Under the pieces are notes generated by a model. The model ran no database searches. It was not told the DNA's origin and saw only the letters and a program-made list of their open reading frames with translations. A DNA stretch of 64,000 bases, from the IMG/VR virus record IMGVR_UViG_2609460060_000003, positions 31,136-95,135 of that record; one strand, given 5' to 3'. The DNA comes from a virus. Its lineage: Duplodnaviria > Heunggongvirae > Uroviricota > Caudoviricetes. The position numbers were made by a program, and so were the translations under genes. This document shows positions 19,723 through 20,067 of the stretch, piece after piece. Within the stretch, counting starts at the first letter, position 1. Each line of letters begins with the position of its first letter.

Positions 19723-19813
19723 ACAACGTTGAGAACACTGGCGTAACGGGGTCATATCCCAATCTACGAATAAATGTTGCGTTGCAGCGTGACAACCAGT
19801 GTTCTCAACATTG
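19723..19813 (+). other. long hairpin element carrying a conserved 24-nt loop motif (copy 1)
   Basis: 18-bp stem CAACGTTGAGAACACTGG / CCAGTGTTCTCAACATTG (one mismatch) around a 54-nt loop containing TAACGGGGTCATATCCCAATCTAC. Confidence 0.45.
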
Positions 19814-20007
19814 TGGTGAATGCACAGGCTGATGTGCCGCAACTACAGTAGTGCGCGCTTTGCGGGGCTTGCTACAACCCTGTGTCGGAGTTCAGCACCG
19901 ACCATCACAGTTTGATTCTCTGGCATGAGCATAACGCTGAAATAAGTCCAGTCTGGTGCGGCCCGATCACCCGCCGTTAGCTCCACGAAACGGAGCACGT
20001 AACAGGT

Positions 20008-20067
20008 AAGAGCATTCTCCTGTAACGGGTTCATATCCCAATCTACAGGTCCACCAGGAATGCTCTT
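20008..20067 (+). other. hairpin element carrying the same loop motif (copy 2)
   Basis: Stem AGAGCATTCTCCTG / CAGGAATGCTCT with different sequence from copy 1, loop contains TAACGGGTTCATATCCCAATCTAC (23/24 identical). Confidence 0.45.

Follow-up and report, generated by a model that had tools for sequence, protein, structure and literature searches.

Candidate processing hairpins in the tRNA-tciA spacer of a P1-like phage: conserved stalks with exchangeable, often tRNA-like tips

In this study we analyzed the spacer between a tRNA gene array and the gene tciA in a stretch of 64,000 nucleotides (hereafter the window; positions 31,136 to 95,135 of the IMG/VR record IMGVR_UViG_2609460060_000003) which originates from a P1-like phage. 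Two hairpins of this spacer, B and C, carry a near-identical motif at their tips. They belong to a family of stalk hairpins, present in many temperate enterobacterial phages including lambda, that lies on the transcribed strand of non-coding leaders and holds a fixed position, 3' of tRNAs or of the terminator tR' and 5' of structured RNA domains. Our preferred reading, to which we assign a probability of about 0.5, is that B and C serve as RNase III processing or stability stalks in the tRNA and mRNA precursor of the ban operon and display or release tRNA-derived mini-RNAs; the cleavage itself we infer from the predicted helices.

The motif is part of a 25-nt direct repeat, GTAACGGG(G/T)TCATATCCCAATCTAC, at 19743-19767 and 20022-20046, with 24 of 25 positions identical and a spacing of 279 nt. 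As a 24-mer, TAACGGG(G/T)TCATATCCCAATCTAC, it occurs exactly twice in the 64 kb at up to three mismatches, where 100 shuffles gave an expectation of 0.00. Folding of the + strand RNA resulted in -49.2 kcal/mol for B (z -6.9) and -28.5 kcal/mol for C (z -5.3), and neither value was matched by any shuffle. The sequence-only reading, made by a model from the letters of the window, had described two hairpins with a near-identical loop motif between tRNA-Thr and tciA and a small GGG-N7-CCC stem within the motif, and all of this was borne out: in B and C alike the motif folds into a small hairpin at the apex, whose GGG/CCC stem closes a 7-nt loop. In copy 1 its parts are a closing A-U/U-A helix, an AC/AAUC internal loop, the GGG/CCC stem and the loop GUCAUAU. 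The stems are long as described, but their dimensions had to be corrected. The arms of B (19719-19741 and 19796-19818, 23 nt, 91% complementary) give 22-23 bp in full with one C.A mismatch in the window instead of 18 bp, and the stem of C (arms 20005-20017 and 20058-20070) contains a 2-nt bulge or an alternative pairing. A small hairpin at 19098-19124, ACGGG-TATAT-CCCGT, resembles the motif core ACGGGTTCATATCCC minus 2 nt and could be a third, degenerate copy.

Conservation of the motif in related genomes was confirmed, as its exact core was present in more than 119 viral contigs on three types of hairpin (B in 94, C in 67, D in about 20 and B/C recombinants in 4). Types B and C come from P1-like phages. 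Type D lies between the holin and a DNA methylase gene in phage PY54 and in Yersinia prophages. Every copy is co-oriented with the nearby tRNAs. Moreover, the P1 motif was detected in 530 of 5426 complete Escherichia coli genomes, with 957 of 973 places on plasmids (listed records about 87-143 kb). A search of species-representative genomes (596 Gb) with a 15-base degenerate motif was too loose, its matches being almost all chance hits in unrelated phyla; the family distribution is that seen in the viral contigs and the E. coli genomes. The apical helix P2, which the motif forms, has the same architecture in types B, C and D, that is, an A-U-closed helix, the AC/AAUC internal loop, the GGG/CCC stem and a 7-nt loop, and its helix differs by type (CGUA/UACG, CCUGUA/UACAGG, CUGAAUA/UAUUCAG, GCGUG/CACGC). 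The inner four pairs of this helix are backed by the formal pair count and covary among types B, C, D and the lambdoid contig L298. A third helix, P3, is common to B and D; its loop UUGCAG is kept and its stem differs.

The stems of B and C had been regarded as unrelated. A covariance model, R1, whose seed comprised 23 hairpins with one common stalk (C and A included, B and Z left out), points instead to diverged relatives of one stalk. Hairpin C scored 65.5 bits (19998-20076, E 1.4e-18) and hairpin B 23.7 bits (19722-19815, E 4e-6). In addition to these two, the model found a third hairpin in the same spacer, A, which begins 2 nt past the CCA end of tRNA-Thr (19496-19582, 64.4 bits), and a fourth, Z, upstream of tRNA-Asn (18964-19044, 37.1 bits, E 4e-10). 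From this comparison we consider the stems of B, C, A and Z to be homologous. The conserved stalk of about 18 bp consists of 6 bp, a bulged A, 2 bp, a U.U mismatch and 10 bp, and the bulged A at stalk position 7 as well as the 1x1 mismatch at position 10 are found in C, A and Z, with compensatory changes in the stalk of Z relative to the canonical stalk. Z scores nearly equally on both strands (37.1 vs 37.0 bits), and the non-coding stretch past it closes with a typical domain 3' hairpin, GCCGGAGACGTACCCGGC, just before tRNA-Asn. Outside the window, R1 gave 65.2 bits for phage lambda 44787-44862; the lambda sequence was outside the seed, which held its near-identical stalk-and-cassette relatives L270 and H_L095. 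Hairpins upstream of DicF in dicBF-type operons of lambdoid contigs (L245, L246) scored 32-35 bits, and in the dicBF-operon copy the bulged A and the 1x1 mismatch are kept and four stalk pairs are changed on both sides. Type D of Yersinia (L124, L030) reached 10-13 bits. The sequence-only reading had named an Rfam covariance search as a check; at E up to 10 across 18500-21400 it returned no family over the hairpins apart from a chance microRNA match on the minus strand, and at the gathering threshold there was no match on the stalks of 17 related loci. A phage processing hairpin of the RNase III type is an already known kind of element. What appears to be undescribed is this family of constant stalks with variable tRNA-like tips, as well as its presence in the P1 ban operon; the family is absent from Rfam.

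Table 1. Positions of the hairpins, motif copies, RNA domains and genes in the window
Feature	Position	Strand	Basis and description
Hairpin Z	18964..19044	+	R1 match; upstream of tRNA-Asn; stalk CACAACAGGTAAGGGCGCTG / CAGCGTCCTTTCCTGTTGCG
tRNA-Asn, tRNA-Tyr, tRNA-Thr array	19248..19494	+	ARAGORN and Rfam tRNA matches
tRNA-Asn	19248-19322	+	ARAGORN
tRNA-Tyr	19328-19414	+	ARAGORN
tRNA-Thr	19419-19494	+	ARAGORN
Hairpin A	19496..19582	+	canonical stalk, tRNA-like apical cassette; fold -40.8 kcal/mol, z -5.3
Domain X1	19577..19721	+	degenerate multi-helix domain after hairpin A; start TTGTGATGAAGTGC, end hairpin GCCGGAACCGTAACCGGC + CACTACAA
Hairpin B	19719..19818	+	22-23-bp stalk around three-way junction; P2 = motif, P3 loop UUGCAG
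Motif copy 1, TAACGGGGTCATATCCCAATCTAC	19744..19767	+	repeat search, tRNA-part comparison
Domain X2	19812..19909	+	paralogue of STnc100-like domain; closing stem TGTGGTG/CATCACA (7 bp)
Hairpin C	19998..20076	+	canonical stalk CGTAACAGGTAAGAGCATTC / GAATGCTCTTTCCGTTGCG; apical cassette = motif hairpin alone
Motif copy 2, TAACGGGTTCATATCCCAATCTAC	20023..20046	+	repeat search
Domain S	20066..20188	+	STnc100/PasD-like; closing stem TGCGGTG/CACCGCA; ends 37 nt before tciA start codon
tciA (TerB family)	20226..20660	+	open reading frame; Pfam TerB E 2e-14; first protein gene 3' of the RNA array
CAU-anticodon tRNA	20935-21010		ARAGORN

Covariation between hairpin types and a strand bias support a transcribed, structured RNA element, as the sequence-only reading had supposed. 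In stalk-arm constructs of 26 distinct types, chosen because they fold and many of them with one common stalk, 93.3% of cells pair and 13 of 19 stalk pairs are changed on both sides (42 cells); none of 500 shuffles equalled these values, and slid controls gave at most 3 both-side-changed pairs. These arms-only constructs and the covariance model took the place of an RNAalifold analysis, in which a MAFFT alignment of types B, C and D yielded only the GGG/CCC stem, since MAFFT does not align the stalks structurally. The + strand RNA exceeded the - strand RNA in stability for 26 of 29 types, with a mean difference of 4.9 kcal/mol (p = 1.7e-4), and most copies score about 30 bits more on the + strand with R1. 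G.U cells outnumber A.C cells by 26 to 8.

The tips of these stalks are exchanged. In a second scan of the viral contigs, with the 3' arm of hairpin C and the start of the following domain as query, we identified about 35 further distinct contigs in which the stalk is essentially the same (CACAACAGGTAAGAGCATTG ... CAGTGCTCTTTCCGTTGTG) and the apical inserts, 45-130 nt in length, are wholly different. In lambdoid contigs the module lies between the gene of the antiterminator Q with its tR'-like terminator and the holin, in two Q families, and tRNA genes are often close by; the nearby tRNA arrays are variable (Asn, Tyr, Thr, Ser, Arg, Ile2). Of the 5426 complete E. coli genomes, 287 contain an unannotated copy of the lambda type. 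Thus the stalk of C carries wholly different tips elsewhere, and the motif tip, shared by B, C and Yersinia type D, sits on three different stalks. These comparisons make the motif one among many apical cassettes which recombination exchanges between stalks. The same loop on divergent stems had been taken as a signature of function; with homologous stems and a recombining tip, there is no independent convergence that could serve as one. The spacer itself is strongly mosaic across P1-like phages, and in D6 and P7 another segment with a tRNA-Ser stands in place of window positions 19835-20060. Furthermore, the sequence 3' of the lambda hairpin (CTGAATTAAGCGAATACCGGAAGCAGAACCGG..., L355 583-668) recurs as the apical insert of a stalk hairpin past this tRNA-Ser (L003 2053-2164), which shows that modules are nested or shuffled. 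On the minus strand of its stored locus, the PY54-like contig L021 has two more stalk hairpins (859-994 and 1197-1364), some 10 kb away from the hairpin that bears the motif; their very large inserts of about 100 and 130 nt hold T-arm-like hairpins.

Many tips resemble parts of tRNAs. Of 29 cassette types, 11 are within two mismatches of a real T-arm 13-mer (null 1.4% per cassette), and four match exactly (A, L253, L329 and L337). In each of these, the T-arm adjoins the stalk's 3' strand, just as it adjoins the acceptor stem in a tRNA. The cassette of hairpin A combines a D-arm-like hairpin, GCGACGTCGGAGATCGC, with the canonical T-arm GGGTTCGAATCCC and has no anticodon arm. Its tip looks like a tRNA without an anticodon arm in which the 'acceptor' helix is lengthened by the 18-bp stalk, and L337 has the same design. 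For the motif two arms come into question. Its 13-mer, GGG(G/U)UCAUAUCCC, is one to two mismatches from the T-arm GGGUUCAAAUCCC and two from the anticodon arm of initiator tRNA, GGGCUCAUAACCC. The loop (G/U)UCAUAU departs from the T-loop consensus, with a U at the position of the invariant A58 and, in copy 1, a G at position 54, and neither B nor C gave a match to tRNA (RF00005) at E up to 10. With the initiator arm both copies, GGG-(G/U)UCAUAU-CCC, have in common three G-C pairs, a 7-nt loop, U33, the anticodon CAU and a purine, A37; the anticodon stem of five bp in a complete tRNA is not formed, as 27-28/42-43 are A.A and C.A and no tRNA surrounds them. All variants of the motif keep CAUA and vary at the anticodon-loop positions 32, 33 and 38, and position 32 is the sole difference between the two copies in the window. 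A diverged motif on the canonical stalk of lambdoid contigs, GGGCCCAUAACCC, is one mismatch from the initiator arm and four from the T-arm. Based on these likenesses we conclude that the motif is tRNA-derived, with the T-arm and the initiator anticodon arm as competing sources.

Each of the spacer hairpins A, B and C lies directly 5' of a domain of about 100-120 nt with TGYGGTGAATGC at its start and a closing 7-bp stem that contains CAYCRCA. On the transcribed strand the start TGYGGTGAAT follows directly 3' of B as TGTGGTGAATGC at 19812 and of C as TGCGGTGAATGC at 20066. Across phages the domain family shows compensatory changes in its closing stem (TGTGGTG/CACCACA, TGCGGTG/CACCGCA, TGTGGTT/AACCACA), its first hairpin (GCACA/TGTGC, GCGCA/TGCGC, TCGCA/TGCGA) and its 3' hairpin (GTCGG/CCGAC, GCCGG/CCGGC, CCGGG/CCCGG). 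In X2 these two hairpins are GCACA-GGCTGA-TGTGC and GTCGG-AGTTCAGCA-CCGAC. Domain S matched Rfam STnc100 (RF02076) with 43.0 bits at a gathering score of 47 (E 2.5e-7, model positions 31-147, window 20073-20188); this sub-threshold match adjoins hairpin C without overlapping the motif, and C itself is not a member of STnc100. X1, supported also by a sequence comparison with Yersinia phage loci, ends in 19 nt that copy the 3' end of tRNA-Thr, seen as a direct repeat of TAACCGGCAC at 19483 and 19712. The domains were rejected as tRNAs, since ARAGORN called X2 only at the 80% threshold with an intron and called no homologue. The base of the stalk 3' arm (TTGTGGTG / TTGCGGTG; 19812-19818 with 19719-19726; 20066-20073) doubles as the 5' strand of the next closing stem, so that the two helices are mutually exclusive over 3-7 nt; this overlap may be a conformational switch or merely reflect repeated boundary sequences.

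PasD1 and PasD2 of enteropathogenic E. coli are Hfq-bound, Northern-validated small RNAs (sRNAs), and a recent preprint described them as structural relatives of STnc100. PasD1 has the same start (GCATGGTGAAT...) and closing stem as the domain 3' of C, and the usual neighbourhood of Q, holin and TerB genes is shared. In contrast to the window arrangement, PasD1 and PasD2 consist of the domain, a seed and a terminator; transcribed from a promoter of their own, they start at the domain and have no stalk hairpin 5' of it. Therefore, we rejected the stalk as a part of PasD/STnc100, and the window hairpins also lie outside the Rfam model.

According to the P1 and P7 records, the spacer region belongs to the C1-controlled ban operon, in which everything is on the + strand in the order Pban with operator, a 'dicF-like region', tRNA genes, spacer, tciABC, tRNA-Ile2 and ban; the P7 record annotates the operator as control of 'trnRNA'. 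In our preferred reading B and C are two of four copies of a phage-wide RNA module, a stalk of about 18-22 bp with an exchangeable apical cassette, which would be transcribed on the + strand within the tRNA-tciABC-ban precursor, each copy directly 5' of an STnc100/PasD-type domain or directly 3' of a tRNA. Most likely the stalk would be an element for stability and double-strand-specific processing. By cutting it, RNase III of the host would separate the tRNAs, the structured domains and the tciA mRNA; 3' trailers of tRNAs and 5' ends of the domains and of the tciA mRNA would be freed, the products would be capped by hairpins, and a capped apical tRNA-like piece would be left or could be released. 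The shared 24-nt motif would be one cassette type, derived from a T-arm-like or initiator-anticodon-arm-like part of a tRNA, and it would occur on several stalks because cassettes and stalks recombine. RNase III requires roughly two helical turns (about 20 bp). The predicted folds reach this length in B (22-23 bp), C (6+2+11 bp plus P2) and A (about 21 bp), and we infer that RNase III would recognize the quasi-continuous helix of the stalk (about 20 bp) as a substrate. Transcript units are also separated by irregular helices of this size, interrupted by bulges or internal loops, at the R1.1-type sites of T7, at the N-leader and sib sites of lambda and in rRNA stalks, and the hairpins left after cleavage at phage RNase III sites stabilize the products. 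Unlike the window stalks, the T7 early sites, the lambda N-leader and sib sites and the rRNA stalks have no hypervariable tRNA-like cassette, and cleavage in the window is a prediction.

The closest parallel is found in phage lambda. The stalk hairpin at 44787-44862 (L355 513-588), with its stalk arms at 44787-44806 and 44844-44862, lies directly past tR', the terminator of the 6S RNA, and before gene S, at about +200 to +275 of the late transcript. It has the same stalk as C and A (65.2 vs 65.5 and 64.4 bits) and the same orientation in a long polycistronic transcript, and it is followed by a domain closed by GTTGTG...CACAAC. It differs in its cassette, GAGTCGATAATCGTGAAGAGTCGGCGAGCCTGGTTAGCC, which lacks the 24-nt motif, and in belonging to the Q-dependent late operon and not to the C1-controlled ban operon. 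RNase III processes the dicBF transcript of E. coli. In vivo RNase III sites in the lambda late transcript were reported by Daniels, Subbarao, Blattner and Lozeron (1988, Virology 167:568), as cited in PMC7547250; these sites stand for the late transcript as a whole and are not assigned here to the hairpin at 44787-44862. Among the roles that the sequence-only reading had listed, a processing site of the tRNA-containing transcript is thus the best supported, with a member of the family in a transcript processed by RNase III, although the cutting of B and C is deduced; for a binding site of a phage regulator we found nothing in support. The module is widespread, is in no RNA family database and sits even in the much-studied late leader of lambda. 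If the stalk is the lambda RNase III site of 1988, it would be a common processing signal for arrays of tRNAs, sRNAs and mRNAs in P1-like, lambda-like and N15/PY54-like phages.

Further known RNAs share single features with the hairpins. The sister cassettes on their long stem resemble the plan of the Y RNA YrlA, a long conserved stem with a tRNA-like module, and exact T-arms and a D-arm-like hairpin are found among them. Unlike YrlA and the RNase P-processed C4 RNA of P1/P7, the hairpins gave no covariance match to tRNA, Y RNA or C4 at E up to 10, and the Y RNA family had no match in 18500-21400, with no Ro-gene search made in the window. To our knowledge P1 has no Ro/Rsr gene. The stalk 3' arm with the start of the domain, CCGUUGUGAUG (e.g. 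19573-19585), resembles what we take to be the sequence of the R1 region of the sRNA GcvB. CACAACA of the stalk 5' arm (e.g. 19496-19502) is identical to the consensus of GcvB R1 targets that AgvB, an anti-sRNA, mimics (PMC4104026). This likeness could be a coincidence or a link to GcvB sponging. The anti-sRNAs AgvB and AsxR occupy the same niche, a 'moron' site past PR', and are likewise built of a conserved and a variable part (PMC4104026). However, they are 51-60 nt long, carry a terminator and vary at the 5' end, the CACAACA of the hairpins is base-paired, and Rfam models of AgvB/AsxR had no match in 18500-21400 or in the 17 related loci.

Several observations weigh against processing as the role of B and C. 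Within types, substitutions keep the pairing about half the time, the neutral expectation (9 kept and 9 broken in B, 6 kept and 10 broken in D), so the covariation expected in relatives is seen between types and comes only from comparisons among hairpins selected for folding. As distinct events the G.U and A.C changes number 8 to 4, which is not significant. The stalk of B is continuous, with neither the bulged A nor the 1x1 mismatch and a low R1 score, type D is only marginal to the model, and the published lambda sites carry the limit given above. Four contigs (L015, L040, L046, L086) have lost 279 bp by recombination between the motif copies, which joined the B 5' arm with the C 3' arm, and can form neither hairpin, and in L118 the 13-nt GGG...CCC core is deleted from hairpin C; such natural variants indicate that the elements are dispensable. 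Moreover, processing alone accounts neither for the near-invariance of the stalk, in sequence as well as in pairing, nor for the hypervariable cassettes. This combination fits a display or decoy function or heavy modular recombination. For the former, an apical mimic of a tRNA arm on a stable stalk would bind or titrate a factor that recognizes tRNAs, such as a modification enzyme, the P site of the 30S subunit or an anticodon nuclease that belongs to a defence or toxin system of the host, with the stalk providing stability or excision only. We regard this as a tentative minority reading, compatible with RNase III processing. The motif core CGGG-NUCAUAU-CCC is two mismatches from the initiator anticodon arm UCGGGCUCAUAACCCGA, a sequence taken from a real tRNA; the lambdoid version CGGGCCCAUAACCC (L266, L298, L306) is one mismatch away at a null of 0.1% per cassette for up to one mismatch; and the constancy of CAUA, the frequency of T-arm matches, the location in variable phage tRNA arrays and the hypervariable cassettes on a constant scaffold, the expected product of an arms race, agree with it. 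However, the arm readings compete, since the P1 motif is one mismatch from a T-arm yet has a U at A58, and only 3 of 5 stem pairs support the anticodon arm; the comparison with tRNA arms was post hoc, the hairpins are covered by no tRNA-like or Y RNA family of Rfam at E up to 10, the deletion and recombinant variants persist in nature, and the partner protein is hypothetical. A fuller version, with an RNase III-excisable scaffold for fast-exchanging mimics (the initiator anticodon arm in P1, T-arm or D-arm elsewhere) that act as decoys or inhibitors of tRNA-targeting defences or toxins and complement the phage tRNAs, is a doubtful idea. It is unusual for a constant stalk to be combined with a hypervariable tip that is often tRNA-like, and through this module the reasons for tRNA-like fragments beside phage tRNA genes become accessible to concrete tests.

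In a neutral account the hairpins are debris of a decaying, recombining tRNA array, with leftover inverted repeats and pseudo-tRNA pieces, and the 24-mer is a duplicated segment kept by gene conversion. The neutral-looking substitutions within types, the tRNA fragments in the cassettes, the tRNA-Thr copy at the end of X1, the mosaic spacer and the 279-bp deletions would all agree with such relics. We nevertheless consider this account unlikely, because compensatory changes preserve the stalk with its bulged A and U.U in P1-like phages, in the late leader and dicBF operon of lambda-like phages and in further phages, the three helices of the junction common to B and Yersinia type D all still pair although their sequences differ, the stability bias is strand-specific, and the hairpins hold their position directly 5' of a covarying structured domain. 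It seems improbable, too, that the hairpins are trans-acting sRNAs which pair through the exposed loop UCAUAUCCCAAUCUA as a seed with host or phage mRNAs in the manner of PasD/STnc100, AgvB, AsxR or DicF. The neighbouring domain family does include genuine Hfq-bound sRNAs, the STnc100-like PasD1 and PasD2, a conserved scaffold with a variable region is the anti-sRNA design 3' of PR' (PMC4104026), and DicF lies in the homologous lambdoid operon, but neither a terminator nor a U-tract belongs to the hairpins themselves, the motif is mostly paired or in a small internal loop, no target was recognized, with no target search made, and PasD starts at the domain. A DNA-level element, that is, a cruciform or single-strand hairpin serving as a recombination site, priming site or protein operator, would account for the scores of long inverted repeats on both strands of the model (nearly equal in Z), for the frequent recombination at the stalk arms that cassette exchange implies and for the ban helicase gene downstream. 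It is very improbable given that the asymmetry of the stalk (the bulged A in the 5' arm and G.U pairs) favours + strand RNA, most copies score far higher on that strand, the orientation to transcription is fixed in every context examined, and no recombinase or replication gene is consistently adjacent. The spacer, about 700 bp and ORF-poor (open reading frame, ORF) in the sequence-only reading, measures 731 bp (19495-20225), but the P1 reference NC_005856 annotates two minus-strand ORFs with predicted promoters over it, plp (19465-19842) and upl (19843-20034), so that conservation might reflect protein coding. The variable sites of plp fall on codon positions 1, 2 and 3 as 28, 25 and 23 in 13 close variants, which is no codon-position bias; codon changes in plp and upl together comprise 9 synonymous and 40 non-synonymous ones; and 3 of the 13 variants have internal stop codons in plp, which we rejected as a gene on these grounds. 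With two variable sites only, upl is too invariant for a coding test. Neither ORF had a Pfam match above threshold, plp overlaps tRNA-Thr, the segment is exchanged in D6 and P7, and no gene is called over the spacer in a newer P1 record and in the RefSeq annotation of hundreds of P1-like plasmids. Judged from these sequence comparisons, plp is probably an annotation artefact over a structured-RNA array, and we give a coding explanation next to no credence; if the stalk is the lambda RNase III site, plp and upl should be removed from the annotation of P1.

On the + strand of 19495-20225 no promoter-like or terminator-like site was found, the nearest terminator-like sites being at 18752-18783 and 20306-20322, and none of the hairpins in the spacer is an intrinsic terminator with a G+C-rich hairpin and a U-tract. 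A P1 transcriptome preprint does not mention the spacer. The window positions 19496-20100 are 99.8% identical to phage P1 (bases 2-606 of the spacer query 19495-20225). The tRNA array contains an extra tRNA-Tyr (GTA, 87 nt) between tRNA-Asn and tRNA-Thr which is not in the P1 reference. In related contigs tRNA-Arg and tRNA-Ser are exchanged into the array, which marks it as a variable cassette region. Upstream, 18690-18790 is the counterpart of the 'dicF-like region' of the P1 record, with the strong terminator-like hairpin and a run of seven T at its end (18752-18783); located between Pban and the tRNAs, this hairpin implies that downstream expression needs read-through.

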